NCBI GenBank assembly: GCA_014727975.1
Contig: WJMK01000039.1
Coordinates: forward strand, 29,237-93,236
DNA length: 64,000 bases
Reading direction: 5' to 3'
DNA from: Candidatus Micrarchaeota archaeon
Lineage (GTDB): Archaea > Micrarchaeota > Micrarchaeia > Anstonellales > Bilamarchaeaceae
Position numbers and translations under genes: made by a program. Of this stretch, positions 45,842 through 63,595 are shown piece after piece. How positions within the stretch are numbered: the first letter of the stretch is position 1; every line of letters begins with the position of its first letter. The notes under the pieces are model-generated. The model was not told the DNA's origin, ran no database searches, and saw only the letters and a program-made list of their open reading frames with translations.

Positions 45842-47038
45842 ATGGAAAAGGGAATATTGCTTATTATGGATGGGCTCGGGGACCTTCCGGACTCTAAGGG
45901 GAAAACCCCTCTTTCTGCTGCCAAAACCCCAAATATGGACAGGATGGCAAAGGAAGGCATTCTCGGGATGCTTTCGCCCATAGGGAAGGGGAATGTTCCG
46001 GGTAGCGATACTTCTCACCTTACGCTTCTTGGATACCCCTACTGGGAATTTTACTGCGGGAGGGGACCGCTGGAGGCACTCGGCTCCGGGATTAAGCTTA
46101 GGGAAGGGGATGTTGCATTCAGGGCAAATTTTGCAACTGTGGAAAAAGGGAAAATAGTGGACAGGAGGGCCGGGAGGATTTCCACTGCGCTTGCCCACAA
46201 ACTTTCCAAGCGGCTGGAAAAGGTGAAAGTGCCGGGCGTTAAGATTATTTTTGCAAATACTGTTGAGCACAGGGGTGTGCTCATACTTCGGGGCGAAGGG
46301 CTGGGGGCATATGTTTCTGGCACCGACCCGCATGAGCTTGCCCATCTGCCAAAGAGCAAAGCTCTGAAGAGAGGGAGTGCCAAGACTGCGCGGGTGCTGA
46401 ATGCATTTACAAAAAAGGCGATGGAAGTGCTTGGGAAAGCCCCTGAAAACGAGGGAAGAAAAAAGCCTGCAAATGCAGTGCTGTGCAGGGGCGCGGGGAC
46501 ATATAGGAAGGTGGATGGTTTTGCAAAAAAACACGGGGTTACCGGTGCATGCGTGGCAGGGGGGGCGCTGTACAAGGGGGTTGCGGATTACATCGGGATG
46601 GATGTGCTCTATGTGAAGGGGGCAACCGGGAGTGTGGATACGGACCTGAAATCCAAGGCAAAGCATGCAGCTGCTGCACTTAAGAACCATGATTTTGTTT
46701 TTGTGCATGTTAAGGGGACGGATAGCTGCGCCCATGACAAGGATTTTGCATGCAAGCAGAAGATGATTGAGCGCGTGGACAGGGAGCTTGTGCCTGCGCT
46801 GAAGAAAACCGGGGCGAATATTGTGATTACCGGGGACCACTCGACTCCGTGCTCGATTGGGGAACATACGGGCCATGAGGTTCCTTTGCTTTGCTGGGGT
46901 GACGGATTCAGGAAGGATTCCTGCAGGAAATTCAGCGAATCTGCGTGCATGGACGGGGGGCTGGGGCACGTGGACGGATGGGACCTGTTCCCGATAATTG
47001 TGAATGCGATGGGCAAGGGGAAGAAAGTTGGGACGTAA
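45842..47038 (+). CDS. apgM: 2,3-bisphosphoglycerate-independent phosphoglycerate mutase, archaeal type
   Basis: LLIMDGLGD...TPNMD...GSDTSHL matches archaeal iPGM; 398 aa. Confidence 0.9.
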   Translation: MEKGILLIMDGLGDLPDSKGKTPLSAAKTPNMDRMAKEGILGMLSPIGKGNVPGSDTSHLTLLGYPYWEFYCGRGPLEALGSGIKLREGDVAFRANFATVEKGKIVDRRAGRISTALAHKLSKRLEKVKVPGVKIIFANTVEHRGVLILRGEGLGAYVSGTDPHELAHLPKSKALKRGSAKTARVLNAFTKKAMEVLGKAPENEGRKKPANAVLCRGAGTYRKVDGFAKKHGVTGACVAGGALYKGVADYIGMDVLYVKGATGSVDTDLKSKAKHAAAALKNHDFVFVHVKGTDSCAHDKDFACKQKMIERVDRELVPALKKTGANIVITGDHSTPCSIGEHTGHEVPLLCWGDGFRKDSCRKFSESACMDGGLGHVDGWDLFPIIVNAMGKGKKVGT

Positions 47039-47092
47039 TTTGCTGCTTAATTGCACTGAAAAGGAGGAAATAAAAGAAAAAGGAATAAGGAA

Positions 47093-47623
47093 CTAGATTG
47101 TGTCCTCGCCTTCAACAACAACTGAGATAACGTTTGCCTGTGCTTCGTGCTTTATGTTTTCGCTGAGGTCATCCTCGTAGTTGTACCAGACAATCAATTT
47201 TCCGCGGAATTCCACGTTTGGCTGCATCTGTATCTGGTCGCCATCTGAGTCAATACAGTCTATGTTGAAGAAATCATCTGAGCTTCCGGTTGGGATTGTT
47301 TGGTCCAGCTCAAATTCGCTTGTGAGCTCAACCTCTGTTGCCTGCGCATTTGTACAGACAATTCCCTTGATTTCCACAGTCTTTCCTAGCTTGTTCCAGA
47401 TACGAACATTCATGCTTACGTCGCCTCCATCAGAATAAATCTGCGGATTCGGCTCGCTGCAGGAGAATCCCTGCTGCTGGAACAAGCACAGCTCAGGAGC
47501 ACTGAACGGGTTCAAATAAATGAGCGCGGCAATCACGATTACGATTGCGAGGAGCGCCCACCCATAAGTCATCAGGTATTCCATCGCCGCTTGGCCTTTT
47601 CTGTAATTTTTCATCATCATCAC
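47093..47623 (-). CDS. archaeal type IV pilin (class III signal peptide)
   Basis: MMMMKNYRKG|QAAMEYLMTYGWALLAIVIVIAALIYL. Confidence 0.7.
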   Translation of the reverse strand: MMMMKNYRKGQAAMEYLMTYGWALLAIVIVIAALIYLNPFSAPELCLFQQQGFSCSEPNPQIYSDGGDVSMNVRIWNKLGKTVEIKGIVCTNAQATEVELTSEFELDQTIPTGSSDDFFNIDCIDSDGDQIQMQPNVEFRGKLIVWYNYEDDLSENIKHEAQANVISVVVEGEDTI

Positions 47624-48694
47624 CTAGAAGAACATACTTGCAAAGAGCGAGTCCAGGAATGAACCCACTACAAAGTAAATTATGTAGGATAGTGCCAGCA
47701 GGAACGGGAAGTACTTCATTCCCTGGGTCTTTGAGCCCGCCCTTATTATTCCAAGCAGGAGCGAGGAAATAAGGGAGGTTATAAACACCAGCGCCATGCT
47801 GAACCAAAAGAACTCATCAGTGCTTACTGAGGGGGATGTAGGCGTTACCAGGAAGCTTGCAGGCATCCCTCCTGCTGCCATGTCCACGCCTCCTGCAGGC
47901 ATGTATGCAAATGCCATTGAGAGAACGCTTATGAGGTTTGTTGAAACAGAGAAGAGGAAAGGTGCCCCTATTGTAGCTGCAAATACCAGGAAGATTACAT
48001 ATACAAGGAGGGTTGCCGCAATATCCTTTTTATGCATTGCAACGTCCCTTGCATCCTGTGAGGTTTCCTCAAGTATTTCTGCGATTTCCCCTCCGGTTGC
48101 AAGGGCCTGCTTGAGGAGGAGAATTGTCCTGTGGAGAACGCGGGAATTGAAGCGCATGTCCAGGCGGTCCAGGGATTTCTCGATTGGCTCACCGGAAAAG
48201 GCGCTCTTGATTACGCGCTTCACTTCTACGGAAAACAGCCCGTATTCAGGCTTTGCAGCATACCACATTGCCTGGTCCAGGGTCATTCCTGAGCGGACGT
48301 TCCCTGCCACCAGGGTAAGGAAATCCGGGAGGACCTCCTCCACTGCATTCTTCCTCGCTTCAGTCTGGAGCAGGATTACTGACCAGACAAGCACATAGGT
48401 TAAGAGGAATGTAACTACGAATGCGGCAACGAAGCTGATTATGATGGATACAATGTCCGGGAGTATGAAGGAAGTGCCGGCAATTGCATAAATGAACTTG
48501 GGGATGGCTGAGGTGTTCAGGAAAACAAGGAACAGCAAGAGGCCCACAAGGACGTTCAGCACTATGAAGAATCCCATGAAAGACTCTGCAGGAACCATGA
48601 TGCCTGCCCCTGCAAGGGACTTTTCAATAGCCCTTATGCGCTTCCTTGAAAGAAGCCGCCCGATTGTTTCGTAAAAACCCATGAGTGCGCTCAT
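47624..48694 (-). CDS. type IV pilus assembly platform protein, single T2SSF domain (TadC-like)
   Basis: T2SSF domain LTLVAGNVRSGMTLDQAMWYAA...LKQALATGGEIAEILE flanked by TM helices. Confidence 0.75.
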   Translation of the reverse strand: MSALMGFYETIGRLLSRKRIRAIEKSLAGAGIMVPAESFMGFFIVLNVLVGLLLFLVFLNTSAIPKFIYAIAGTSFILPDIVSIIISFVAAFVVTFLLTYVLVWSVILLQTEARKNAVEEVLPDFLTLVAGNVRSGMTLDQAMWYAAKPEYGLFSVEVKRVIKSAFSGEPIEKSLDRLDMRFNSRVLHRTILLLKQALATGGEIAEILEETSQDARDVAMHKKDIAATLLVYVIFLVFAATIGAPFLFSVSTNLISVLSMAFAYMPAGGVDMAAGGMPASFLVTPTSPSVSTDEFFWFSMALVFITSLISSLLLGIIRAGSKTQGMKYFPFLLALSYIIYFVVGSFLDSLFASMFF

Positions 48695-48703
48695 AATAAT
48701 CCC

Positions 48704-49600
48704 TCAGAATGCATACCTCGGCCTGGAAGTCTCCACCATTGACAGGAACATGAACTGTATTACCCCTACCATAAACAGGAAGAGGAGCAATACGGGCGCA
48801 TCGAGAGCAAATCTCCCGGAACCGATGAATGAGAAAAGTATTATTGCAAAAGCAAGCCCCAGAGAAGGGAAAATAATGCCGAAAATCATGTAGAACATGA
48901 TGAGGGGGTTGAGCTTCTGCCCATAGGACTTCAGCTCGATTATCTGCTCCTTGAATACCTGGTTCAGGACCACTTCAAGGGAATCCGCAACATCCGCACC
49001 TGATCCGACTGCGTTTGCAAGCTGTACCATAATCCTGCGGAATGCAGGTGAAGGGTTGGTTTGCACTACCTCCCTTATTGCCTGGCCTATGGGAGTGCCC
49101 AGGGTAACCTTTTCAACAATCCTGTTGAATTCCTTGCTTACTTCACCGTAGCCGCGGGAAACACCGACCATTGCATCGAAAAGGGGCATCCCTGAGCGGA
49201 GCCCTATAAGCAGGTGCCTCACTGCAAAAACAAGCTCATAGTCTATTGCCTTCTTCCGCTTCAGCACCATTACCGAAGGATACATCATATAATAGAAAAA
49301 GGAAAAAATCATGTATACAAAGAACAGGAGCACCACAAAGAGGGTGGCCATCTGGACCGCTGCCATATCCAAGACTATGAAAGTGAGTATGGAGAGGGCA
49401 AGCGCTGAAAAGAATGCGGAAAAAATCACGCGGTCCATGAAGGTTTCCGGTGAATCCTTCATGCTTGCAAGAACCATCTTCTTCCTGAGAGTTGGGAAAT
49501 AAGGGATTATGAATTCAGAAAGAGAGCGGATTGGGCCTCTCTTTCCAGAACCCCTCGCAGGGAGGGCAACAGGAGTCACCTTTTTCTTCGGGCTTGCCAT
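48704..49600 (-). CDS. type IV pilus assembly platform protein, single T2SSF domain (TadB-like)
   Basis: VRHLLIGLRSGMPLFDAMVGVS...VQLANAVGSGADVADSLEVV. Confidence 0.75.
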   Translation of the reverse strand: MASPKKKVTPVALPARGSGKRGPIRSLSEFIIPYFPTLRKKMVLASMKDSPETFMDRVIFSAFFSALALSILTFIVLDMAAVQMATLFVVLLFFVYMIFSFFYYMMYPSVMVLKRKKAIDYELVFAVRHLLIGLRSGMPLFDAMVGVSRGYGEVSKEFNRIVEKVTLGTPIGQAIREVVQTNPSPAFRRIMVQLANAVGSGADVADSLEVVLNQVFKEQIIELKSYGQKLNPLIMFYMIFGIIFPSLGLAFAIILFSFIGSGRFALDAPVLLLFLFMVGVIQFMFLSMVETSRPRYAF

Positions 49601-49624
49601 ATCTTCACCATTAAATATATATTA

Positions 49625-51274
49625 CTACTTTCGACCAAAACGTTTATTTATGGTATCCTCATCGAGGCCTGATTCCTTTGCCATAAGCTTCCTTGCAGTG
49701 AGGAGTGCCTCAGAGCGTTCAATTTCCCCCCTTGCGTACTTGTTGTATGTGCGCGAATCCTTTGCCTGCAGGAGGTTGAAAAGGGCCTCATCCGAAGCTC
49801 CGGCTACCTGTGCAAGCTTCATTGCTTTGGGGTCTCCTGCCTTTTCAAGCAGGAGCTCTCGTTTTGTTTCAATCTGTGAGTGGATTGCCTCCCCTATTGA
49901 ATTCTTGAGGGCGGAAAAGTCATGTGAATATTCATCTTTAAGTGAGGACCTGAGCTTTTCAGAATCCGGAGTGGACTGGCCCTTTGCCTTGAGTTTTGCA
50001 AGCTCTGCACTGTGCTTTGCAGTAAGGAATGTGTGGTATTTCTCTATTATCTCCATAAGGGCATGCTCAAGCTCCACCATGTTTTTGGAAAATGCCTCCA
50101 GTGCAGGGCCCCTGTGCTTGACTGCCCGCTGGGCCTCAAAAGCAGAGAGGGCCTGCTTTGCGTTTTTTTCATAGATGGACTGGATGCGGCTCTTTGCTTC
50201 CTTCAGCTCAAGCTTCTGCTCATTTGAAAGGGCAGTGAAAAGGGCGCCTTTTGGAAGTCCTCCTGCTTCTGCCTTTCCCCCTTTTCCCTTAAGGAGTTCC
50301 TTGAGTGTGACAATTTCTTTCTTGATCTCTGCGCGCCTGTCCTGGGAACGCTCTTTGAAAAGTTCCCTTGTGAGTTCAAGCATGCGCTTTTTTGTGTCTT
50401 CAACATCAACTTTCTTGGTTTTCTTTCCGGTCATCTGGGCGCCGAGCTGCGCCTCCAGCCTGTTTAGGCTCTTCTCTGCTTCTTTAATAGGGGATTTGCT
50501 GAGTGCTTTTGGCTGCACAACATCTAGTACAGGCCCTTCTGTTTCAGGGGGACCGGAAACAATTTCCTCCTTTGCCGGTTCATAAGGAGCTGGCTCTTCT
50601 GCAGGAAGAGGCTCCTCCGGCTTCTCCGGAACTGGCATTATCTTCTTTTCCGGGGCAGGCCTGAGCTTTGGCTCAGGAGAAGGCTTGATCTTTTCTTCAG
50701 CTTCAGGAGGCTTCTTTTCCGGGAGCGGGGGAACTTCCAGTTCTGCCTCTTTCTCCTTTTCTTCAGGTTCCGGGGGAAGCGTCTCCTGCATTTTTGGAGT
50801 TTCCGGGAGCTCGGGCAGCCTGGCTGCTGCCTCCTCTGCTTTTCTCCTTTCCAGCTCAGCAGGAGAAGGGACCTTTGGTTCAGGGGGGGCCTCCCCAGGT
50901 TCCTCAGCAGCTTCTGCTTCAGGAGCAGGTGCAGGGACTTTGGCGGCCTCCCTTGCGCTCTCTACGCTTATCTTTTTCATCTCTTTTTCTACTTCGGACG
51001 CCTCCTTCTGGACATGTGTGGGGGCAGGGGTTGCAGGCTCCGCAGGCTCAACCTTTTCTGCCCCGAACATCCCAATGTCCATCCTGGATGCCTTTATTAT
51101 TTTGTCCATCCGGTTGTACTGGTTTATAATATCCACATAATCCATCTCATGGATATCCGGGGGAGAAAGCTCAAGCGAGCGCTTTACTTTCTTCTCCTTT
51201 ATCTTTGCAGGGGAGTATTCAGATGCTGAATCCTCCACCCGGGAAACTTCACTTATGGCGTCCCTGAAATCCAT
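49625..51274 (-). CDS. coiled-coil protein with a Pro/Glu/Lys-rich repeat region (pilus-locus accessory)
   Basis: 549 aa; central PEPK/EPEK low-complexity region; C-terminal helical region; operonic between the ATPase and the TadB-like gene. Confidence 0.5.
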   Translation of the reverse strand: MDFRDAISEVSRVEDSASEYSPAKIKEKKVKRSLELSPPDIHEMDYVDIINQYNRMDKIIKASRMDIGMFGAEKVEPAEPATPAPTHVQKEASEVEKEMKKISVESAREAAKVPAPAPEAEAAEEPGEAPPEPKVPSPAELERRKAEEAAARLPELPETPKMQETLPPEPEEKEKEAELEVPPLPEKKPPEAEEKIKPSPEPKLRPAPEKKIMPVPEKPEEPLPAEEPAPYEPAKEEIVSGPPETEGPVLDVVQPKALSKSPIKEAEKSLNRLEAQLGAQMTGKKTKKVDVEDTKKRMLELTRELFKERSQDRRAEIKKEIVTLKELLKGKGGKAEAGGLPKGALFTALSNEQKLELKEAKSRIQSIYEKNAKQALSAFEAQRAVKHRGPALEAFSKNMVELEHALMEIIEKYHTFLTAKHSAELAKLKAKGQSTPDSEKLRSSLKDEYSHDFSALKNSIGEAIHSQIETKRELLLEKAGDPKAMKLAQVAGASDEALFNLLQAKDSRTYNKYARGEIERSEALLTARKLMAKESGLDEDTINKRFGRK

Positions 51275-51284
51275 CCGGATACCC

Positions 51285-53201
51285 TCAGAACTCCCATGCC
51301 TTGTTCTTCTTCACAGACGAAAGCACTTCCTCAGGTGTCTGGTAGTAATTGGAGACAATTGAGCCGACCTCGTTTACTGCCTCGTAGCCGTGCTTCACCA
51401 TCCAGTTGAGCACAGAAACCTTCTCTGCAACATCCTGGTCTATTTCTTTGGCAGTAAGGCCGGAATAAAGCTCGATTGTTTTTGCAATGCTGTCCAGCTT
51501 CCCTGATTTTACAGTGACATCGCGCTTGGAGTCCCACCTGTAAATCATGTTCAGGTCACCCTGGTTCTGCACTTCTGCAAACTCAAGGGTCCTGCGGATA
51601 TTGAGCCTCCTCTGCCTGTACTGCACAACAATTCCTGCGAGCGCGTCCAGGTTCTCTTCAGGCACATTGATTGGCGGATTCACCAGCCTGCTGATTGTCT
51701 GGGATGCATTGTCCGCATGCAGGGTTGCGTATACGGAGTGCCCTGTGTGCATTGCCTCGAAAAGGACCTCGGCTTCCTTCTGCCTCCTTACTTCTCCGAC
51801 AACAATGCGGTCCGGCCTCTGCCTCAGTGCATTAACCATGAGGTTGAGCATTGAGACTTCTCCTTTCCCTTCAGGGTTGGGCTCCCTTGTAACCATGGGT
51901 ACCCAGTGCAGGAATGATGGAAGGGTAAGTTCCCTTGTGTCCTCAATGCTGATTATGCGCTGGTTTGCAGGAATAAGGCCTGCCATTGCATTCAGGAAAG
52001 ACGTTTTACCGCTTCCTGTACCTCCGGAAACAAGGAGGGAAAGCTCGCTCTGCACGCAAAGCCAGATTGTGGCTGCAACTTCAGGGCTTATTGTCTTGCT
52101 CCTGATCAGGTTGGTAATTGTCCAGGGGTTCCTGGAGAACTTCCTGATTGTCATGGTGTTCCCATAGTTGGAAACAGGGAACAGGGTTGCGTTTACACGG
52201 TCCCCGTTGGGGAGGTGTGCATCCAGGAGCGGGCTCAGTATGTTTATCTGGCGCCCTACTTTGCGCGCGACGAGTGCGGCATAATCATAGATGCGCTCTT
52301 CGTTCTTTAGGCGCAGGTTGGTCTTGCACCAGCCGTATTTCTTGTGGTAAACCCATACCGGGTCCCTTGAGTTATTTACTACAACTTCTTCCAGGAACTC
52401 ATCGTGGAGCGGAGTTTCCAGCTCGCCCATCCCAAGAGTATTCTGGATAAGGTAGGATGCAAGTATTTTCCTCTTCTCCGGGGGAAGCTGGGGGAAGTTC
52501 CTGCCCAGGACCCTCATGGCCGAATCCTGGAACTTTGCCTTCACCATCTCCTGCTTCTTCGGGTCAAGGATTTCAGTAATGTCAAGCTTTACATCGGAAA
52601 TGAGCTCTGCGCGGAGCTTGGTTTCCAGAAGGAGCTTGGTCCCCCCTGCAATTCCAGGGATTGAGATGCTGTAGACAGGCACAAAGTCTTCCTTTTGGAC
52701 TATGGCGACTTCCACTGGAATTGATTCGCTCAAGAAGGTGTAGGAATCCAGGACCTTGGTCTTTTTTGGCTCCCCTTCACGCTCAGGCAGGGGCTCGAAT
52801 TCCTGCTCTTTTTCAACAACTGCTGCAACCTGCATTTCTTCCGGGACCTCTCCTGGCTCTCCTTCTCCCCCTTCAGGCTCTTCAGGCTCTCCGGAACCGC
52901 CCATGGCTCTGGGCTTTTCCTCTTCCTCCCCGGGCTCTTCGGGTTCCTCCTCTTCTTCGTATTCTTCCTCCTCAAGCTCTTCCTCTTCCTCAGGGATTTC
53001 CTCTTCTATTTTCTCTGGCTCTTCTTTTGGTTTGGGCTTGGGGGGTTTCTTTTCCTCATCTTTTTTTGAACGCGAGTTCTGCCTTGCGGCAGCAGCCTTC
53101 TGGGATTCTTTTATCCTCTTAACAATGTCCCTTACCGTCTTTTTGGACGGGGCTTTCTTTTTCGAACCCTTTTTTCCGGATGATTTTTTTGGTTTTGCCA
53201 T
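51285..53201 (-). CDS. type IV pilus/secretion ATPase (FlaI/TadA/VirB11 superfamily) with a disordered N-terminal extension
   Basis: Walker A LLVSGGTGSGKTSFLNAMAGLIP; Asp box and His box; N-terminal ~130 aa of K/E-rich low complexity. Confidence 0.9.
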   Translation of the reverse strand: MAKPKKSSGKKGSKKKAPSKKTVRDIVKRIKESQKAAAARQNSRSKKDEEKKPPKPKPKEEPEKIEEEIPEEEEELEEEEYEEEEEPEEPGEEEEKPRAMGGSGEPEEPEGGEGEPGEVPEEMQVAAVVEKEQEFEPLPEREGEPKKTKVLDSYTFLSESIPVEVAIVQKEDFVPVYSISIPGIAGGTKLLLETKLRAELISDVKLDITEILDPKKQEMVKAKFQDSAMRVLGRNFPQLPPEKRKILASYLIQNTLGMGELETPLHDEFLEEVVVNNSRDPVWVYHKKYGWCKTNLRLKNEERIYDYAALVARKVGRQINILSPLLDAHLPNGDRVNATLFPVSNYGNTMTIRKFSRNPWTITNLIRSKTISPEVAATIWLCVQSELSLLVSGGTGSGKTSFLNAMAGLIPANQRIISIEDTRELTLPSFLHWVPMVTREPNPEGKGEVSMLNLMVNALRQRPDRIVVGEVRRQKEAEVLFEAMHTGHSVYATLHADNASQTISRLVNPPINVPEENLDALAGIVVQYRQRRLNIRRTLEFAEVQNQGDLNMIYRWDSKRDVTVKSGKLDSIAKTIELYSGLTAKEIDQDVAEKVSVLNWMVKHGYEAVNEVGSIVSNYYQTPEEVLSSVKKNKAWEF

Positions 53202-53211
53202 GGATTCACCA

Positions 53212-54936
53212 TCAGTCGCTCTCCCATAGTTTACGTATGAGTCCTTTTAATTCCTTTCTCTTGCGCTCGAATTCTTCCTGCTCTTTGGAAGTCAGGGAGA
53301 CTTTGTCTTTTACTTCTTTTTCCTTTTTGCCTTCCCCTTTCCCTTCCTCTTTGGAGGGGGCGGCCTCTCCGCCCCTAAGGGCGATGAGCTTTGCTTCCTT
53401 GGAAAGGAGCTTTATGTTCTTCTCGATCATGCCCGAGCGGGCATTAAGGTCCGCAATCAGAGAGCGGATTTTCTGTAGTTCTTTTTTCTTGGTCTTGAGT
53501 TGCGAAACAAGCTCCTTTGCTTCCTTGAGGGACTTCGGGGTTGTTTTTTCAGCCAGTTCCTTTGTCTTCTTGGCGGATTCCTCCCTTGTGGCCTTAAGTT
53601 CTTTTTTTAGCTGGGAGGTTTCCTCCCTTATTTTTGCAAGCTGGGCAAGGTAGGCATCTATTGCCATCTTGGTCTTGGACTTGATTTTCTGGAAAGTTGC
53701 GTAATTTGCTGTTTCCTCTTCTATGGAAGCAAGGATTTCGTCTGCATCTTCTGTAAGCTGGCTCCTTGCCGCTTCAATCTCTTCCTTCATTTCCTCGAGC
53801 TCTTCAATAAGCTCACCGATTGATAGGACATTGCCCGGGACCCCTGCAAGGGAGGACTCTATTTTCTTGAAATCCTTTGAGATGCGCTCTTCGTCCTTTT
53901 CAAGGGCTTCCAGCTTGGAGAGGATTTCTTTTTTTGTGGGCACATTCTCCAGCACTTCCTGGGCAATCCCTATCGTTTCAGAGTACTGGTCAGCTACTGC
54001 AAGGTCGTCCACTATCTGTTTTTCTAGCTCGGGCAGCTCTTTTTTCAGTGCCTCTATGTGCTCATATTCTGACTTGAGCCTATTGCGGGTCTTCTCCGCA
54101 CTCTTTGAAAGCTCGCTTATGTGGGAAACTGCATCCTGGATTGTGTCTGCGTTTGCCTTGAATTCTGAAATCATGGAGCGGAGGTATTCTGACTCCTCAT
54201 GCATTTTCTGGAAATCGTCGCTGAGCGAGTCAAACTCATCCTTCACTTCCCCTATTTCCACTTCCTCCTTTGGGGCATTCTTCTTTATCTCGTCAACCCT
54301 GGAAACAAGCTCGTTGAACTGCCTGTCCAGGCCATTCATGTGCTCTTTCGCTGTTTCCACCTTGCTGAGCTTCCTGTCAAGGTCTTTTTCCTCAAAAGTC
54401 TTTCCGGTTTTTTCAAGCTGGAGCTCCAGGCCCTTTATGGAGCCCTCTATTTCGCTGAGCTTCTCGCTAAGGGATTTTACTTTGTCCATGGACGCCTTGG
54501 AAACTGCTGTTTTCTTTTCCTTTGCAGCCTCTATCTGCCGGGAAAGCTCCTCAACCTTTGCAAAATCCTCTTCGAACTTCTGTGAGAGGTTCTCGATTGC
54601 TTCTGTATACTCGCGGAGGTCCCTTTTTCCGGTTTCCTGTATTTCATCGAGCTTCTGGATCTCGCCTTCAACCTTGGTTTTCCTTTTCCGGAAAACCTGC
54701 TTTTCCTTTTCCATCTGCTCAGGGGTTGCGGGCACCCAGACAAAGTAGACTTTTGTGAGCTGATAATCTATGCGGATTATGCCTTCCTCTTCCAGTATGT
54801 GTGCCCAATCCTCGACAGTTGTTTGGGGGAGGTTGAGGAGCTTGGAAGCCATTGCAAGGTCGATTTTCTTCTTCTCTTTTATAAGCCGTATGAGTGAATC
54901 TACTCCAGTGCTGATGAGGAGGTCCTCCATTTCCAT
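53212..54936 (-). CDS. winged-HTH-like N-terminal module plus long coiled-coil protein (first gene of the pilus operon)
   Basis: N-terminus ISTGVDSLIRLIKEKKKIDLAMASKLLNLPQTTVEDWAHILEEEGIIRIDY; ~450 aa of heptad-rich K/E sequence. Confidence 0.5.
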   Translation of the reverse strand: MEMEDLLISTGVDSLIRLIKEKKKIDLAMASKLLNLPQTTVEDWAHILEEEGIIRIDYQLTKVYFVWVPATPEQMEKEKQVFRKRKTKVEGEIQKLDEIQETGKRDLREYTEAIENLSQKFEEDFAKVEELSRQIEAAKEKKTAVSKASMDKVKSLSEKLSEIEGSIKGLELQLEKTGKTFEEKDLDRKLSKVETAKEHMNGLDRQFNELVSRVDEIKKNAPKEEVEIGEVKDEFDSLSDDFQKMHEESEYLRSMISEFKANADTIQDAVSHISELSKSAEKTRNRLKSEYEHIEALKKELPELEKQIVDDLAVADQYSETIGIAQEVLENVPTKKEILSKLEALEKDEERISKDFKKIESSLAGVPGNVLSIGELIEELEEMKEEIEAARSQLTEDADEILASIEEETANYATFQKIKSKTKMAIDAYLAQLAKIREETSQLKKELKATREESAKKTKELAEKTTPKSLKEAKELVSQLKTKKKELQKIRSLIADLNARSGMIEKNIKLLSKEAKLIALRGGEAAPSKEEGKGEGKKEKEVKDKVSLTSKEQEEFERKRKELKGLIRKLWESD

Positions 54937-54975
54937 GAGACGATATCCTACGCGTATATTTAAAATATTTCCGTA

Positions 54976-56646
54976 ATGGAGAATTTCTGCACGAAAAGAA
55001 TATGCTTAATAAAGATTGTGGAAAAATTAAGTGCAATGGCGGAAGATGCAGAGCTTGGCAAGGAGATACGGAAGGTTGAGAAGAACTCACTCCAGAAATT
55101 CAAGAACCAGAATAAGGTTCTCAAGAAGTTCGGGAAGGTGGGGCTCAAAGTCTACCGCTCCATACGGAAAAAGGGAATCAGCATAGAGGAGCTGATGGGG
55201 AAGGCCAAGCTTGAGCAGGAAAAGCTTTTCGAAATTCTGATGTTCCTCAAGGAAAAAGGCATGATTGAAACTGTTGTGGAGGCAGGGCCCGGGAAGATTG
55301 AGGTTGAGGAGGAGGCTGCAATGGCCAAGCCTGAAGGGCCGATAAAAGCAAGGCCAAAGGGGAAGAAGAAAAAGAAGGGCGTGAAAGAAGAGAAAGGAGC
55401 TTTGGAGAAGAAAGGAGAAGAGGAAGAAAAGAGGAAGCCTGGGAAAAAGGTGAAAAAGGAAAGGCAGCCTGCCCCTGCAACTATCGCCCCTGAGGAAGAG
55501 ACAGAAGAAGGAGAAGAGGGGAAGATTGAACCAGTGCGCGAAGAAGCCCCTGCAATTGCGCCCGAGGCTGAAATAAAGCCTGAGGAAGAAGAGGAACTAA
55601 CCCCTGAGGAGGAATTTGGCATTGGAAAAGGCCCAGAAGAGAAAGAAGTGGAGATTCCTGAGGTTGAAGAGGAAGGGGGCATAGTCCCGCTTGAGCTTAA
55701 GGAAGAGGAAGAAGAGGAGCCTGAGCAGGAAGAGGAGGAAGGGCCGGAAAAGCCCGAAGAGCCTGAGGAAGAGAGCTACGATGACGAAATTTCCCCCTCA
55801 GAACGCAAAGAAGAGGAAGAAGAGCCCGAGGAGGAGGATGAGGACATCTTCCTTACCCCGGGGGAGAAGAAAATCAAGGCAAAATACGGGCAGGTGGGAA
55901 TTGACGTTTATAATCTTATTGACGGCCAAAGGACTGCAGAGCAGATAATGAAAAGCACCGGGGTAACTGAAACCAAGCTTATTGAAATGCTGGATTTCAT
56001 GGAGAAAAAAGGCATAATCAAGCTTGAGCACCCCGGAACAAAAAGAAAGAAGAAAAGAAGGGCCCCAAAAATGCCAAAGGTAAAGGAAGTGGGCTTTGCG
56101 CCAATGCTTGAGGAAGGCGTGTCCCCGGAAAAACCGCTTGGAGGGGAACTGGGGAAGGAATTTACCCTTGATGTGCCTTCAAAGTTGCCGGGCAACATGC
56201 TCAGGGAAATACAGATGAAGGCAAACCTCATGATTAAATTCAAGAAGCCGGGGGCAAAGGCATTTGAGCTAATGAATGGGAGCAGGGATGCGGTGGAGAT
56301 TGCACTCAAGACCGGGCTCCCGCTTTATAGAGTATATAAGGTCATGGCATACCTGCAGAGGGAGGGAATGGTTAAGCTTGAGCCCTCCACCCGGGAAGAG
56401 ATTAAAAGAAAGTACGGGGAAGACGGTTATTCCGTGTACAAAAGATACGGGAGGGACGGGGTAATGCTCTACCAGCTTATCGGGAAGGACATGGATTTGA
56501 AGCAGATGGCAGACCTGACTTCAGAAGACAAGAAGAGGGTTGTTGAAATCTTCATGTTCATCCACCGGCTCCTCGGGATTGAGCTCCCGATTGATGAGGA
56601 TGTTCTTCTTGAGAGGATACAATCCGCCGGGCCTGTCCCTAAATAA
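54976..56646 (+). CDS. protein with four repeats of a ~55-aa wHTH-like module separated by E-rich linkers
   Basis: Repeats KFGKVGLKVYRSI...; KYGQVGIDVYNLIDGQRTAEQIMK...; AKAFELMNGSRDAVEIAL...; KYGEDGYSVYKRYGRDGVMLYQLI... Confidence 0.5.
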   Translation: MENFCTKRICLIKIVEKLSAMAEDAELGKEIRKVEKNSLQKFKNQNKVLKKFGKVGLKVYRSIRKKGISIEELMGKAKLEQEKLFEILMFLKEKGMIETVVEAGPGKIEVEEEAAMAKPEGPIKARPKGKKKKKGVKEEKGALEKKGEEEEKRKPGKKVKKERQPAPATIAPEEETEEGEEGKIEPVREEAPAIAPEAEIKPEEEEELTPEEEFGIGKGPEEKEVEIPEVEEEGGIVPLELKEEEEEEPEQEEEEGPEKPEEPEEESYDDEISPSERKEEEEEPEEEDEDIFLTPGEKKIKAKYGQVGIDVYNLIDGQRTAEQIMKSTGVTETKLIEMLDFMEKKGIIKLEHPGTKRKKKRRAPKMPKVKEVGFAPMLEEGVSPEKPLGGELGKEFTLDVPSKLPGNMLREIQMKANLMIKFKKPGAKAFELMNGSRDAVEIALKTGLPLYRVYKVMAYLQREGMVKLEPSTREEIKRKYGEDGYSVYKRYGRDGVMLYQLIGKDMDLKQMADLTSEDKKRVVEIFMFIHRLLGIELPIDEDVLLERIQSAGPVPK

Positions 56647-57034
56647 CCCTTGAGAGGGAGATTCTCTCTATTTCCAGCGGGGAGGCCTTCTTCTTTAAAT
56701 TTAAGGGTGCTTCCCTAAGCTGGAAAAGAGAGAGCATCCTGGGCTTTGTTTTGCCGGAGGAGACAAGCAGGATGTCTTGCGCAGACTGGAAAGAATATGC
56801 TTTCAGTGCAGATGTGATGTCTTTTTTTGCTGCAAGCCAGAGCAGAAACTCCTTTTCCGGCTTTTTTGCAATATTTCTTTTTTCCTTTGTTGCGTTTTTT
56901 GCGAGCTGTTCTGCAAGAAGGAGCTCTTCCTCTGAATTTATTTTTTTTGGGTTAATGAGGAGCGTGTTGGTTTTTTCTGCCAGGCTTAGGAGCTTTTCTT
57001 TGGGCAATGGGGAGCTTCCCCTGAGGAAAATCAT
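56639..57034 (-). CDS. possible KEOPS subunit Cgi121-like protein
   Basis: NIAKKPEKEFLLWLAAKKDITSALKAYSF resembles the Cgi121 core (IAKS.FWMEILVRASGQRQIHEAIKI); N-terminus MIFLRG. Confidence 0.35.
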   Translation of the reverse strand: MIFLRGSSPLPKEKLLSLAEKTNTLLINPKKINSEEELLLAEQLAKNATKEKRNIAKKPEKEFLLWLAAKKDITSALKAYSFQSAQDILLVSSGKTKPRMLSLFQLREAPLNLKKKASPLEIERISLSRVI

Positions 57035-57109
57035 GAGAGGAATGGGAGGGGACAGATATTAAAACATTACCATTCTATAAAATGAACTCACTATTCATTT
57101 TCCAGGTGA

Positions 57110-57499
57110 ATGATTATGGAAGAATATCACGAAGGCAGAAAGAAGAAAGTCTCCTCCGGGAGCGGGGGAAGAAGAGGAAGGTACCGGGACAAGAAAAAGG
57201 CCCACCTTGGAGGAGTATTCAGCTCCACCAAGGTTTCTGATGAGCCAAGAAGGGAAACCAAGAGGCTCAGGGGGGGGAGCACCCGCGCAAAAGTAAAAAG
57301 GTCTGCATTCGTGAACGTTGTTTCTGAAGGGAAAACGCAGAAGGTGAAGATTGAGGGTGTTGTGGAGAGCCACAACCCGCACTATGCGCGCCAGAACATC
57401 ATTACAAAGGGAGCAGTGCTGAATACTGCGCTTGGGAAGGTGCGCGTTACCAACCGCGTTGGGCAGGACGGGGTTGTGAACGGAGTCCTTGTAAAGTAG
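57110..57499 (+). CDS. rps8e: 30S ribosomal protein S8e
   Basis: Basic N-terminus with GRKKK...SGG; C-terminal RVGQDGVVNGVLV, an S8e signature. Confidence 0.8.
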   Translation: MIMEEYHEGRKKKVSSGSGGRRGRYRDKKKAHLGGVFSSTKVSDEPRRETKRLRGGSTRAKVKRSAFVNVVSEGKTQKVKIEGVVESHNPHYARQNIITKGAVLNTALGKVRVTNRVGQDGVVNGVLVK

Positions 57500-57585
57500 G
57501 TTCTTGTTTTTATTTTTTTCAGCTTCATTTTCTATTCCTTATTTAAAATCTTGTTTTTCAATTACACCCATCCAGGGTGATATAA

Positions 57586-59664
57586 GTGGAAGGGAAATTT
57601 TACACTACTACTGCGATTCCTTATGTGAATGCTGCCCCGCACCTGGGGCATGCGCTTGAGTTTGTGCAGACAGATGTAATTGCACGGTACCAGAGGCTGC
57701 GCGGGAAGGATGTTGCGCTTGTTACGGGCGCGGATGAGAATTCCCTGAAGAACGTGCAGGCTGCAGAAAAGCGCGGGATTTCCGTGGAGCAGCTCTGCGA
57801 AGAGAATGCTGCAAAATTCAGGGAAATGGCAGATGCAGTAGGGCTTTCCTACACCTCTTTCCAGAGGACTTCGGGCAAGGAAAAACACTGGGCAGGAGTG
57901 CAGAAGCTCTGGGAGCTCTGCAGCCAAAACGGAGACCTTTACAAAAAGAAATACAGGGGGCTTTACTGCGTGGGGTGCGAGGCGTTCCTGGAAGAAAGTG
58001 AGCTTGTGGATGGAATGTGCCCTGAGCACAAAAAGGCACCGGAGCCGGTGGAAGAGGAAAACTATTTCTTCAGGCTTTCGAAATACCAGGAGAAGCTGGA
58101 GCAGCTTATTGAGAGTAATGAGCTTAAGGTGGTGCCGGAAACGCGGAAGAATGAGGTGCTTTCCTTTATACGTGGGGGGCTGAAGGATTTCAGCATCTCC
58201 AGATCTGTGGAGAGGGCGCATGGGTGGGGGGTTCCTGTGCCCGGGGATTCCGAGCAGATTATGTATGTTTGGTTCGATGCGCTCGGGACTTACCTTACCG
58301 GTATTGGGTATGGGGCGGATGAAGCGGAGTTCGGGAAATACTGGCCTGCTGATGTGCACGTAATCGGGAAGGGGATACTGAGGTTCCATGCGGTTTACTG
58401 GCCTGTGATGCTGCTTTCTGCAGGGCTCCCCCTTCCAAAGAATATTTTTGTGCACGGGTACATTACGGTGGAGGGGCAGAAAATGAGCAAATCGCTCGGG
58501 AACATCGTGGACCCGTTTGCACTGGTTGAAAAATTTGGGGTTGAACCGGTGCGCTACTGCCTGCTGAGTGAAGTGCCTACATTTGAAGATGGGGATTTCT
58601 CCGAGCGGGTGCTGGTTGAGAAGAACAATAATGAGCTTATTGCAAACATTGGAAACCTGGTTAACCGTACCATGGTTTTCATAAGGAACAATTTTGAGGG
58701 GCGGGTTCCCAGGGGCGAGCTGAATGCGGAGGATGAAAAATTCCTTGCGGGGCAGAAAGAGGTCATTGGAAAGATTGGGGCCGCAATGGATGAAATGAAG
58801 ATTAGGGAAGCGCTCCAGCACGTGATGGAATTCGGGAAAAATGCGAACAAATACTTCCAGGACAATGCGCCTTGGGAGCTGGTAAAAAGCGATAAGGGGA
58901 GGGCAGGGGCTGTGCTTTACCTGCTTGCAAACCAGGCAAAGGACCTGGGCATACTCTGTGCGCCCTTCCTTCCTGGAACCAGCGCAAGCATATTCAAGCA
59001 GCTGGGGTTGGAAAGCCGGGGATGGGAAGACTTGGGCTCCCTTTCAGTCAAGGAGGGGCATGGGCTTGGAGAGCCTGAAATACTTTTCAGGAAGATTGAG
59101 GGGAAAAAGGAGCAGCAGGGCCCGGCCCCTGCTTCGGACCAAGAGGCGAAGCCCGCGGAGAAGCCCCTGGAAAAACCCATAGGGGATAAAGAAAAGATTT
59201 CTTTTGCGGGTTTGGACCTGGAAGTGGGGGAAATTGTCTCGGTTGAGAAGCACCCTGATGCAGACAAGCTTTATGTTGAGAAAGTGAGGCTGGGGGATGG
59301 GGAAAAACAGGTTGTCTCCGGGCTCGTGGAATATATTTCTGCGGAAGAGCTTAAGGGGAAGAGAGTGGTCATTGTGAAGAACCTTGCTCCTGCAAAACTG
59401 AGGGGTGTGGAATCAGAAGGGATGCTCCTTGTTGCAGAAAGCAGGGAAGACGGAGTGGAAGTGCTTGAGCCGGATGCGGAAGTTGGGGAAAAAATAACCA
59501 TGGTGGGAGTTGCGCACAGCCCAAAAGAAGAGATAAGCTTCAAGGAATTCAGCAAAGTAAAATTCAAAGTCAGGGACTGGAAAGTCTCTGCAGAGGGGAA
59601 ACAGCTCTTTTCAGGCAACAAACTGCTTAAAACCAAGAGAGTGAGTGATGGGAAAGTCTCCTGA
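57586..59664 (+). CDS. metG: methionyl-tRNA synthetase with C-terminal tRNA-binding (EMAP/Trbp111-like) domain
   Basis: HLGHALEF (HIGH) and KMSKS motifs; CxxC knuckles; C-terminal OB-fold LDLEVGEIVSVEKHPDADKLYVEKV; GTG start. Confidence 0.95.
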   Translation: MEGKFYTTTAIPYVNAAPHLGHALEFVQTDVIARYQRLRGKDVALVTGADENSLKNVQAAEKRGISVEQLCEENAAKFREMADAVGLSYTSFQRTSGKEKHWAGVQKLWELCSQNGDLYKKKYRGLYCVGCEAFLEESELVDGMCPEHKKAPEPVEEENYFFRLSKYQEKLEQLIESNELKVVPETRKNEVLSFIRGGLKDFSISRSVERAHGWGVPVPGDSEQIMYVWFDALGTYLTGIGYGADEAEFGKYWPADVHVIGKGILRFHAVYWPVMLLSAGLPLPKNIFVHGYITVEGQKMSKSLGNIVDPFALVEKFGVEPVRYCLLSEVPTFEDGDFSERVLVEKNNNELIANIGNLVNRTMVFIRNNFEGRVPRGELNAEDEKFLAGQKEVIGKIGAAMDEMKIREALQHVMEFGKNANKYFQDNAPWELVKSDKGRAGAVLYLLANQAKDLGILCAPFLPGTSASIFKQLGLESRGWEDLGSLSVKEGHGLGEPEILFRKIEGKKEQQGPAPASDQEAKPAEKPLEKPIGDKEKISFAGLDLEVGEIVSVEKHPDADKLYVEKVRLGDGEKQVVSGLVEYISAEELKGKRVVIVKNLAPAKLRGVESEGMLLVAESREDGVEVLEPDAEVGEKITMVGVAHSPKEEISFKEFSKVKFKVRDWKVSAEGKQLFSGNKLLKTKRVSDGKVS

Positions 59665-62608: not shown

Positions 62609-63595
62609 CTATTGATTTGAAGGCCGCGGCGGAAGGAACTGGAATTTGTATTCCTGCTGGAAGGTTACTACTTCCTGGTCCCGGATAAGGTTCCCGAATT
62701 TTTCCCTTATTTCAGCAAGCTGCTTGAGGAAGGTCTCTTCCTTGTTTACCTGGAATTCGAGCTCTACGTCCCCGCCCCCAAATGCTTCATCAATGTAAAC
62801 GACATATGGGTTTTTCCGTATGTGGTCCAGGAGTTTTTTGCGGCTTGCCTTTGTCTGGCCGGAAAGGCGCAGGTAAACTTTGTGGTACTTTATCCCAAGC
62901 AGAGAATAGTTGGGGGAAAGCCTGAATCCATGCAATACCTCCTCCTTCATAAGGCTGTTGAGCAGGGAATCTATTTTTGAGGGGGGCTTTTTCAGGATTC
63001 TTGCAAGGGCCTGCGTGTCCATGCGCGAATTTATGGCAAGGAGCCTGAGCAGGCTCCAGTCCTCTTCGCTCAACTCAATGGGCTTGCCTTCGCTGATTAT
63101 TTCGCTTTTCTTTGCAGTTTGGGCTGCTTCGTCTCCCAGGAGGCAGGCCCTGGAATATACATAAAGGCGGTGGACCACCGCAACCTTTTTCTTTTCCACA
63201 TGCTTCCCGTACTCCTGGAGAAACTCGGAGAGGAACTCCTGGAATTCATGTGTGTCCTTTGCCCAAACAACTGCGCTAAGGTCCCACCTCCCCCTGCAGG
63301 AAACAAGCCAGCCAATATCCTCCCTGGAATTAAGCACTTCGAAAAGTTCAAAACGCTCTTTCCTAGAGATATCCTTAAGGCGGACGCTGAGCCGGTAGGG
63401 GGAATACCCTAATTTATATACATTTATTATAGGATTGAAGCCAAGGATTACCCCTGAATCCACGAGCTCTTTTATGCGGGAAGAGACCTCTGTTTCATCC
63501 ATGTTGAGTTTTTTTGCAATTGCAGAATCAGTCTGGCGCGAATCAATGTCCAGTTCATACAGGATTTTCCTGTCCGGGCTATCCAGAGCCTCCAT
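62609..63595 (-). CDS. tandem-duplicated Lrp/AsnC-family transcription regulator
   Basis: Two HTH plus RAM-like halves (DRKILYELDIDSRQTDSAIAKKL...; WSLLRLLAINSRMDTQALARILK...); start taken at the internal ATG 63595. Confidence 0.7.
   Translation of the reverse strand: MEALDSPDRKILYELDIDSRQTDSAIAKKLNMDETEVSSRIKELVDSGVILGFNPIINVYKLGYSPYRLSVRLKDISRKERFELFEVLNSREDIGWLVSCRGRWDLSAVVWAKDTHEFQEFLSEFLQEYGKHVEKKKVAVVHRLYVYSRACLLGDEAAQTAKKSEIISEGKPIELSEEDWSLLRLLAINSRMDTQALARILKKPPSKIDSLLNSLMKEEVLHGFRLSPNYSLLGIKYHKVYLRLSGQTKASRKKLLDHIRKNPYVVYIDEAFGGGDVELEFQVNKEETFLKQLAEIREKFGNLIRDQEVVTFQQEYKFQFLPPRPSNQ

Follow-up and report, generated by a model that had tools for sequence, protein, structure and literature searches.

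The stretch of DNA analysed here (the window) comprises 64,000 nt of a Candidatus Micrarchaeota contig (GenBank WJMK01000039.1, positions 29,237 to 93,236) and contains a pair of divergently transcribed genes, here called A and B. Gene A codes for a winged-helix (WH) domain followed by a long coiled coil and leads an operon of six tightly packed minus-strand genes: A, a FlaI/TadA-type secretion ATPase, a protein X, two membrane proteins of the T2SSF family and a pilin-like protein (Table 1). Gene B codes for a protein with four WH modules, and its product is identical to GF412_04545 of NCBI (536 aa). Both open reading frames (ORFs) were found where they had been placed originally, the maximal frame of B (54976-56646) coding for 556 aa. 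The operon downstream of A had been called a pilus operon and is indeed type IV pilus (T4P)-like, judged by the T2SSE ATPase, the two T2SSF genes and the pilin-like gene. The reading best supported by our data makes A an accessory or scaffold subunit, located in the cytoplasm, of T4P-like machines in DPANN archaea.

Protein A had been described as a module of about 50 aa followed by some 450 aa of coiled coil, and this is what the structural model gives. With 37 homologues as input, AlphaFold2 folds aa 3-67 into a canonical winged helix of the order H1-b1-H2-H3-b2-b3 (mean predicted local distance difference test score, pLDDT, 79; 84-91 over aa 11-70), and from aa 72 onwards the helix is unbroken, forming a coiled coil of about 470 aa. 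Foldseek related the WH domain to generic winged helix-turn-helix (wHTH) folds of the ArsR/MarR/PadR/AspA kind in the PDB (E ~4e-4); a likeness to AspA, PadR and TFE-alpha was considered and dropped, being at the level of the fold only. The recognition helix H3 carries a net charge of -5, which is also the family median (range -6 to -4), and contains the invariant residues E42, W44 and E49. The median pI of the family is 5.25. There are just 6 prolines in 449 residues of the rod, and profile searches against Pfam, NCBIfam and PDB matched it only to the coiled coils of MCP, myosin and SMC proteins. The C-terminal helix is moderately amphipathic (hydrophobic moment, muH, 0.5-0.57). Membrane targeting through this helix is not claimed, the moment being moderate, and neither A nor B has a transmembrane (TM) segment (maximum KD19 of A 1.02).

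Public pipelines call several members of the A family (P0122, P0136, P0137, P0208, P0222, P0228 and P0319) 'chromosome segregation ATPase' or 'SbcCD ATPase subunit'. In Pfam and NCBIfam searches A showed no ATPase head and no P-loop domain, and its scores against SMC_prok_B (48.8 bits, cut-off 567), ASRP (46.7, cut-off 300) and Rad50 (41.8, cut-off 700) all come from the coiled coil only. Because the rod matches nothing but coiled coils, the JGI label 'chromosome segregation ATPase' on A homologues is an artefact, and the ATPase-type names given to the family are a systematic mis-annotation driven by the coiled coil. The family definition given below corrects this recurring error.

A word-indexed search with A returned 36 full-length homologues. 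The same kind of search with a profile of the A domain yielded only 30 short fragments, and an exhaustive HMMER search with the domain-only profile against 1.84 billion representatives (clusters at 50% identity) was used instead. It found the domain in 2,435 clusters at E<=1e-3, in 926 at E<=1e-10 and in 65 at E<=1e-30; among the hits listed, it is N-terminal in 150 out of 150. The proteins fall into length classes of about 570, 490 and 385 aa and join the acidic WH domain to 300-500 aa of coiled coil. From these data we define the A family by an N-terminal WH domain with the signature TGVD…(E/D)EWA..LEEE, a coiled coil after it, and a gene position adjacent to T2SSE.

The class of about 385 aa, with the motif …TGVDKLV…EEWADFLEEEGII…, is informative for the function of A. 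Two of its members are labelled Nanoarchaeota at NCBI, and a fragment with an N-terminus identical to that of a third is labelled Woesearchaeota. In three out of three readable loci of the 385-420-aa class (L091, L092 and L093), from which one protein bears the Nanoarchaeota label and another is N-terminally identical to the Woesearchaeota fragment, the A-like gene stands directly before a T2SSE ATPase gene and two T2SSF genes, its end overlapping the ATPase start or lying 4-53 nt from it. The four products of these operons measure, in this order, 385, 511, 271 and 376 aa in L091, 419, 529, 271 and 367 aa in L092, and 385, 532, 274 and 391 aa in L093. B is absent from all three loci and the surrounding genes are unlike those of Micrarchaeota; therefore, the association of A with the ATPase is here not inherited synteny. 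Read from gene order, this context is the strongest evidence for A as a T4P component. The association with a pilus ATPase operon, noted in the original prediction, is seen in a second DPANN lineage too, A-family genes directly preceding T4P ATPases there. In L093 the block is preceded by genes for small proteins, one of them with a weak, sub-threshold match to a class III signal peptide; the locus also encodes a protein of 902 aa that matches VWA weakly.

Table 1. Genes, domains and spacer elements of the A-B locus in the window.
Feature	Position	Strand	Remarks
Gene A	53212-54936	-	574 aa; WH and coiled coil; leads operon; 10-nt gap to ATPase gene
A N-terminal WH domain (aa 1-70)	54727-54936	-	motifs LLISTGVD and VEDWAHILEEEGII.I.Y; acidic recognition helix
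A coiled-coil/helical rod (aa ~72-544)	53305-54723	-	several conserved blocks in family alignment
A C-terminal basic helix (…LT..EQEEFE.KRKELK.LIRKLWE.D)	53215-53304	-	columns nearly invariant in family
FlaI/TadA-type secretion ATPase	51285-53201	-	638 aa; Pfam T2SSE 131 bits
Protein X	49625-51274	-	549 aa; E/P/K-rich low-complexity N-terminal half; helical, conserved C-terminal half
T2SSF, half-size TadC/FlaJ-like membrane protein	48704-49600	-	298 aa
T2SSF, half-size TadC/FlaJ-like membrane protein	47624-48694	-	356 aa
Pilin-like gene	47093-47623	-	176 aa; N-terminus …KGQAAMEYLMTYGWALLAIVIVIAALIYL
A-B spacer	54937-55035	.	two AT-rich promoter-like boxes
Box TATATTTAAAATATTT	54955-54970		18 nt from A ATG
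Box ATGCTTAATAAAGATTGTGG	55002-55021		TTAATAAA core ends 22 nt before B ATG; unique in window
Gene B	55036-56646	+	536-aa tetra-winged-helix protein; maximal ORF from 54976
B module 1, B1 (ORF aa 49-104)	55120-55287	+	weak TrmB/MCM_WH matches
B1-B2 linker	55291-55866	+	192 aa; 39% D+E, 11% P; acidic, disordered
B module 2, B2 (ORF aa 300-355)	55873-56040	+	most conserved module; acidic recognition helix; pLDDT 88-94
B module 3, B3 (ORF aa 419-474)	56230-56397	+	most TrmB-like module; pLDDT 95-98
B module 4, B4 (ORF aa 488-543)	56437-56604	+	degenerate, wing-less, packed on module 3; model helices only

Within the Micrarchaeota, loci were collected in a scan of one genome per species, in which relatives of B turned up in 137 genomes; of the loci, 80 were retained for a tblastn tally. 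Where at least 2 kb upstream of B could be read, A is divergent and adjacent to B in 65 out of 73 loci. Where 6 kb or more could be read on this side, the ATPase gene directly follows A in 49 out of 62 loci and lies within the locus in 55. In eight of these species-level loci A stays beside B without an ATPase directly downstream, several of them having the ATPase on the far side of B. A second, A-anchored scan of metagenomes gave 80 loci in 53 clusters at 90% identity, without species dereplication. Among the 29 with both flanks, ten show B and A divergent with the ATPase next, twelve show B and A with the ATPase not directly downstream, and six show A and the ATPase without B. The twelve loci carry the A class of about 490 aa. 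A loss of the ATPase downstream of A, as suspected for 16 out of 39 metagenomic loci, was only apparent: it was traced to the 490-aa class, whose ATPase operon lies on the far side of B and past the 6-kb flank. In a group which includes the Anstonellales, the divergent A-B pair is kept and an operon of ATPase, X and two TadC genes lies 5-8 kb away on the other side of B. In one Micrarchaeota lineage (L003/L004, 1-8036, minus strand) a giant NosD/beta-helix repeat protein of more than 2,680 aa is encoded downstream of A in place of the ATPase operon.

More than 208 homologues of B were found, with 440-580 aa, and the named ones all belong to Micrarchaeota, 'ainarchaeum' or 'uncultured archaeon'. 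From this sampling, B seems to be found almost only in Micrarchaeota. The translation start of B almost certainly is the ATG at 55036 and not the beginning of the maximal ORF at 54976, as had been assumed, so that the first 20 codons are probably untranslated: NCBI annotates 536 aa, M1 is nearly invariant among 91 homologues, and the ATG is preceded by a TATA-like box whose end lies 22 nt before it. In the same alignment an N-terminal FKNQN motif is conserved along with M1.

Four copies of a module with the pattern K(Y/F)G..G..VY had been proposed for B. They lie at ORF residues of about 49, 300, 419 and 488, and all four are supported by shuffling and by profile comparison. Against 2,000 composition-preserving shuffles, Smith-Waterman scores gave z values of 10.9 for B1-B2, 13.2 for B2-B3, 5.5 for B1-B3, 6.5 for both B1-B4 and B2-B4, and 3.9 for B3-B4. 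Module slices cut from the 91-sequence family alignment were compared by hhalign, with probabilities of 99.3% for B1-B2 (E 1e-20), 98.3% for B1-B3 and B2-B3, 92% for B1-B4, 94% for B2-B4 and 41% for B3-B4. Within B, hidden Markov models (HMMs) of the modules detect one another down to 1.7e-17, and BLASTP of B against itself detected no internal repeats. K and E abound in these proteins and their long linkers are of low complexity, from which a repeat could arise as an artefact of low complexity or biased composition. However, none of 2,000 shuffles reached the observed scores of B1-B2, B2-B3, B1-B3 or B1-B4, the profile-profile E-values go down to 1e-20, the modules fold at pLDDT 88-98, and they are conserved across the 91 aligned homologues. 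The artefact is already refuted by the shuffles, hhalign and the model, and B1-B4 are a genuine internal repeat family.

In module 2, family-wide invariant positions are G285, G288, Y292, D296, G297, T300, I304, L315, E317, L319, G326, I327 and I328. Modules 3 and 4 adjoin directly and form one rigid unit in the model (pLDDT 95-98). The modules had been described as joined by E-rich linkers. This is correct for the linker between B1 and B2, of which neither length nor sequence is conserved in the family consensus, but the B2-B3 linker is K/P-rich and B3 adjoins B4. An additional half-motif of the KYG..G..VY type (KRKYGEDGYSVYK) stands right before module 4 (…YKRYGRDGVMLY…; 56404-56445, plus strand, ORF aa 476-489), and its consensus VRKKYGDDGYSVYKKYGREG is kept across the B family. 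This suggests an ancient partial duplication.

The whole protein B scores 41.6 bits against Pfam TrmB (PF01978), above the cut-off of 25.6. Among single modules, B3 scores 26.4 bits, B2 18.0 and B1 13.7, and B4 has no match. The equivalog models were matched over about 35 residues and far below their cut-offs (TrmBL1 17.4 bits, cut-off 650; TrmB Halobacteria 12.2, cut-off 500). Judged by these scores, B is not a TrmB orthologue and has no effector domain. The original prediction had set a module tied to its locus against an abundant, generic wHTH; the B module belongs to the generic TrmB type and yet does have a locus association. The recognition helices of B1, B2, B3 and B4 have charges of -1, -1, +2 and +2 in the window and family medians of -3, -4, -1 and 0, respectively; in B3, the H3 residues that face the solvent vary within the family. 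The median pI of the B family is 4.6. For the C-terminal half of B, Foldseek against the PDB found no significant match to a multi-domain arrangement (best E 0.35), ScpB, kleisin and MukE being no better than E 1.6, and a sequence-profile search of the PDB with B gave nothing specific (best E 0.084). Analogies to ESCRT-II, ScpB/kleisin, RPC82 and TFIIE were considered for B and dropped, having neither structural nor sequence support.

The five modules of A and B had been expected to form one statistically supported repeat family, which is true for B1-B4 but not for the module of A. In the shuffling test the A module reached a z of 3.8 against B2 and of at most 1.5 against the other modules. 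By hhalign only 32-34 residues of the HTH core (H2-H3) align with the B modules, with probabilities of 87, 71, 43 and 0.1%, and searches between A and B with module HMMs gave independent E-values (iE) of at least 0.005. The N-terminal KYG..G..VY motif is missing from A. By sequence comparison, the WH domain of A is not a fifth copy and is related to the B modules only at the generic wHTH level. One further protein combines features of both: P0225 (L174, 227-2200, plus strand; 657 aa) consists of five tandem A-type WH domains (iE 1e-7 to 1e-9 each) with K/E/P-rich linkers and the C-terminus …KRYKKYGK, so that its architecture is B-like and its modules are A-type. Its matches to the B1 and B2 profiles are weak (full-sequence E ~1e-6). 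On its short contig it adjoins a gene (L174, 2527-2931, plus strand) with a class III (prepilin) signal peptide, PF04021 scoring 26.9 bits with a cut-off of 23.7. This single locus suggests that multi-WH proteins recur beside T4P genes, and the modules of A and B may share ancestry inside the wHTH superfamily.

The spacer between the start codons of A and B has a median length of about 75 bp and typically 53-100 bp; it is longer, 99-115 bp, in the clade of the window. In 49 out of 60 homologous spacers it holds the element TTAATAAA(C/G)ATTTTG (TTAATAAAsATTTTG), which reads CAAAAT(S)TTTATTAA on the A strand and lies 21-22 nt from the start codon of A (interquartile range) and 30-50 nt from that of B. 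From the established architecture of archaeal promoters we infer that it is the transcription factor B recognition element (BRE) and TATA box of a leaderless A transcript. Since promoter geometry explains the element, it is not evidence for an operator. In the clade of the window the conserved element (55002-55021) sits 22 nt upstream of the ATG of B; the element may be bidirectional in short spacers and duplicated in this clade, and which of the two boxes serves which gene we infer. The spacer offers a compact system for the study of bidirectional archaeal promoters.

As had been predicted, A and B do not match known accessory proteins: no Pfam or NCBIfam model for those of the Tad, archaellum, Ups, Aap or bindosome systems hit either of them. 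The closest parallel to A is FlaX/ArlX, a coiled-coil protein described in PMC5019145 as scaffolding the archaellum motor of Crenarchaeota. It, too, shares its operon with a FlaI-type ATPase and is a proposed scaffold on the cytoplasmic face of a T4P-superfamily machine. A differs from FlaX/ArlX by its N-terminal WH domain, the lack of a TM segment and about twice the length, and the Pfam and NCBIfam searches showed no sequence similarity between them. FlaX is membrane-anchored and, to our knowledge, has no WH domain. The operon of A also differs from an archaellum operon, as it has no FlaH, FlaG or FlaF and its ATPase scores 274 bits against NCBIfam FlaI, under the cut-off of 550. Another counterpart is arCOG07564, a cytoplasmic coiled-coil protein of archaeal T4P loci of subclade 4F (Makarova, Koonin and Albers 2016, PMC4858521). 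Like A, and compared by description only, it is an uncharacterised intracellular coiled coil linked to a T4P ATPase/TadC module; it is presented as a unique halobacterial component with no WH domain mentioned, and the subclade 4F ATPase clade is also seen in nanoarchaea (PMC4858521).

For B, the modules share with the TrmB regulators (PF01978; TrmB, TrmBL1, TrmBL2) the N-terminal wHTH signature …G…VY..L…G..t..ei…g…..vy..l..L…G.v. In contrast to these regulators, B has four modules per chain instead of one, no effector or sugar-binding domain, mostly acidic or neutral recognition helices and an acidic tether of 190 aa. Several WH domains per chain are also found in Pol III RPC3/RPC82 and RPC6/RPC39, GATOR1 Nprl2/3 and MukE/F, where they serve protein-protein contacts. 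RPC3, Nprl2/3 and MukEF were weak, non-significant top Foldseek matches to the C-terminal half of B (E >=0.35, TM <=0.23), and beyond the WH fold there is no evidence for homology between B and these multi-WH proteins.

Taken together, the reading to which we tentatively give most weight is that A is an accessory or scaffold of the T4P-like machine and B, weakly favoured, an adaptor that binds A. A would be transcribed, probably leaderless, from the BRE/TATA element of the spacer, together with the ATPase, protein X, the two half-size TadC proteins and the pilin. It would dimerise or oligomerise through its coiled coil, and the conserved acidic surface of its WH domain, with the invariant E42, W44 and E49, would dock to protein instead of reading DNA. 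In this way A may tether or position the ATPase/TadC platform, as FlaX/ArlX does for the crenarchaeal archaellum motor. B would share the compact bidirectional promoter region with A and, with its N-terminal WH, acidic tether of ~190 aa, central WH and rigid C-terminal tandem, might serve as a multivalent binding partner or adaptor of A. Such a role is weakly preferred over that of a classical DNA-binding repressor because of the acidic conserved helices, the multivalency, the flexible tether and the fact that A and B stay paired where the ATPase operon has moved. Acidic charge prevails on the WH surfaces that are conserved best, a pattern more in keeping with protein docking than with the reading of DNA, though B3 and B4 are ambiguous. 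Scaffolds, regulators or organisers, as named originally, remain the right set of options, of which scaffold or accessory is favoured for A and any may apply to B.

Several observations weigh against this assignment. The contexts examined from the other class are three only. In the 490-aa (Anstonellales-type) class A stands apart from the ATPase and is followed by unrelated genes, such as those for Cdc48, an OB-fold protein or a glycosyltransferase, so that co-transcription of A with the ATPase is not obligatory. B occurs without adjacent A or operon in at least eight loci; in L005, L007, L023, L024, L028, L033, L062 and L088 glutamate dehydrogenase (GDH) or another gene lies upstream of B, and the named ones among these are Bilamarchaeaceae. 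Housekeeping genes on the other side of B are conserved equally well: S8e in 59 out of 65 loci (within 5.5 kb), Cgi121 in 52 out of 65 and methionyl-tRNA synthetase (MetRS) in 34 out of 47. Therefore, the adjacency of B to the pilus genes has little functional weight. Six contexts had once suggested that B is tied to Cgi121 and S8e instead of A and the pilus genes; the 80-locus tally revised this, and the housekeeping control tempered it again. B had been predicted to flank the pilus operon, and the counts for divergent A and for an ATPase within the locus agree with this, but it may partly reflect phylum-wide synteny. This synteny is unusually deep: the gene order phosphoglycerate mutase, pilus operon-A, B-Cgi121-S8e…MetRS (…GDH) was observed throughout the phylum (45842-59664 in the window; L001-L088). 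Moreover, B3 reaches the Pfam threshold for TrmB and has a recognition helix of +2 in the window, and divergent pairs of regulator and operon are common.

The latter points lead to a different role of B, that of a conventional TrmB-type transcription factor. It would bind DNA in the A-B spacer and regulate both its own gene and the divergent A/pilus operon, the four WH modules of one chain standing in for a multimer; A may still be a pilus accessory. As a role for B, a regulator of the promoter that it shares with A comes close to the adaptor in likelihood, and as a complete account of the locus we regard it as possible, with less confidence than the scaffold-adaptor reading. The whole protein (41.6 bits) and B3 alone (26.4 bits) exceed the Pfam gathering score, though the scores against the TrmBL1 and TrmB equivalogs fall well short of their cut-offs. 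Furthermore, B and A are divergent over a spacer of 53-100 bp in 65 out of 73 loci, and 49 out of 60 spacers have a conserved, nearly palindromic element, ATGTTAATAAACAT, that overlaps the TATA box; however, this element has the exact geometry of BRE and TATA, 21-22 nt from the ATG of A, and no operator is needed to account for it. The positive helices of B3 and B4 in the window (+2 each) would suit DNA binding, but the family medians are -1 and 0 for these two and -3 and -4 for B1 and B2, the two best-conserved modules, and the exposed H3 positions of B3 vary. Regulators of the wHTH type are common in archaeal T4P loci (PMC4858521), whereas B stays beside housekeeping genes also where A is absent.

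A third possibility is that A and B serve the organisation of the chromosome or the cell, unrelated to the pilus, and are its neighbours through conserved gene order. WH domains are typical of kleisin/ScpB-type partners. The JGI name 'chromosome segregation ATPase' on several A homologues and the weak coiled-coil matches of A to SMC, Rad50 and ASRP would agree with such a role, but A has no ATPase head or P-loop and its 48.8 bits for SMC, with a cut-off of 567, come from the coiled coil only; likewise, no match of B to ScpB, kleisin or MukE in Foldseek was better than E 1.6. The synteny block with Cgi121, S8e and MetRS and the persistence of A-B without an ATPase directly downstream of A also point in this direction. 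Against this, the ATPase operon is still within 6-8 kb in Anstonellales-type loci, and A-like genes directly precede T2SSE and T2SSF genes in three out of three loci of the other class, which synteny among Micrarchaeota cannot explain. Given this context of the A-like genes, a role of the A-B pair independent of the pilus is less likely, and we consider it improbable.

An extension of the scaffold-adaptor reading is speculative and, in our view, rather doubtful: the WH-coiled-coil proteins of the A family might be an unrecognised core T4P component of DPANN archaea (Micrarchaeota and lineages of the Nanoarchaeota/Woesearchaeota type), with the acidic WH domain docking to protein. In Micrarchaeota B would be its dedicated partner and, by means of the flexible acidic tether and the four modules, would join A dimers to a lattice or ring in the cytoplasm below the ATPase/TadC platform. 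Multi-WH proteins made of A-type modules, like P0225, could play the same role in other lineages.

The DPANN archaea, Micrarchaeota among them, live as ultra-small episymbionts, and we know of no described cytoplasmic parts of their T4P machines. Microscopy has shown pilus-like links to their hosts, and T4P loci were proposed as the host interface (PMC5498576). The A family comprises 2,435 clusters and is covered by no model of Pfam or NCBIfam. In two DPANN lineages at least, its genes stand at the head of T4P ATPase operons, and the family is a candidate for a missing scaffold or regulatory subunit. If the speculative reading of the A family as a core T4P component were true, a WH-based cytoplasmic scaffold would be a hallmark of the pili which these episymbionts may use for contact with the host. 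B is a case in which a single phylum has multiplied a generic DNA-binding module of the TrmB type and turned it acidic, which probably serves protein binding. In the literature searched, neither family is described. Coiled-coil accessories and wHTH proteins are known from archaeal T4P loci (PMC4858521); the architectures of A and B are undescribed in Pfam, NCBIfam and the papers searched. These findings overturn no current understanding and add no surprising mechanism yet; their value lies in annotation and in the generation of hypotheses.

Of the other proteins of the operon, the two T2SSF proteins score 66.5 and 57.9 bits in Pfam, their matches to ArlJ/UpsF being weak. The pilin-like gene is kept at its operon position in most loci. 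Its translation begins with KGQAAMEY and a hydrophobic helix resembling a class III signal peptide, and PF04021 does not score it. Protein X belongs to no family found in Pfam or NCBIfam searches; a conserved C-terminal half occupies this place in the operon of most Micrarchaeota loci, the operons L091-L093 lack the protein, and it is a candidate for a further lineage-specific pilus component. The ATPase of the window has an N-terminal low-complexity extension of about 150 aa (52750-53201, minus strand), first K-rich and then E-rich, and the shorter orthologues of other loci (511-532 aa) are without it. Finally, at 62609-63595 (minus strand), 6 kb from B, the window encodes a protein of about 325 aa with two WH units of the AsnC-type/HTH_24. 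The same architecture is found in two loci of the other A-family class, L089 (7005-7994, minus strand) and L091 (3580-4548, minus strand), one gene upstream of the A-like gene and on the opposite strand; this protein may be another recurrent multi-WH neighbour.

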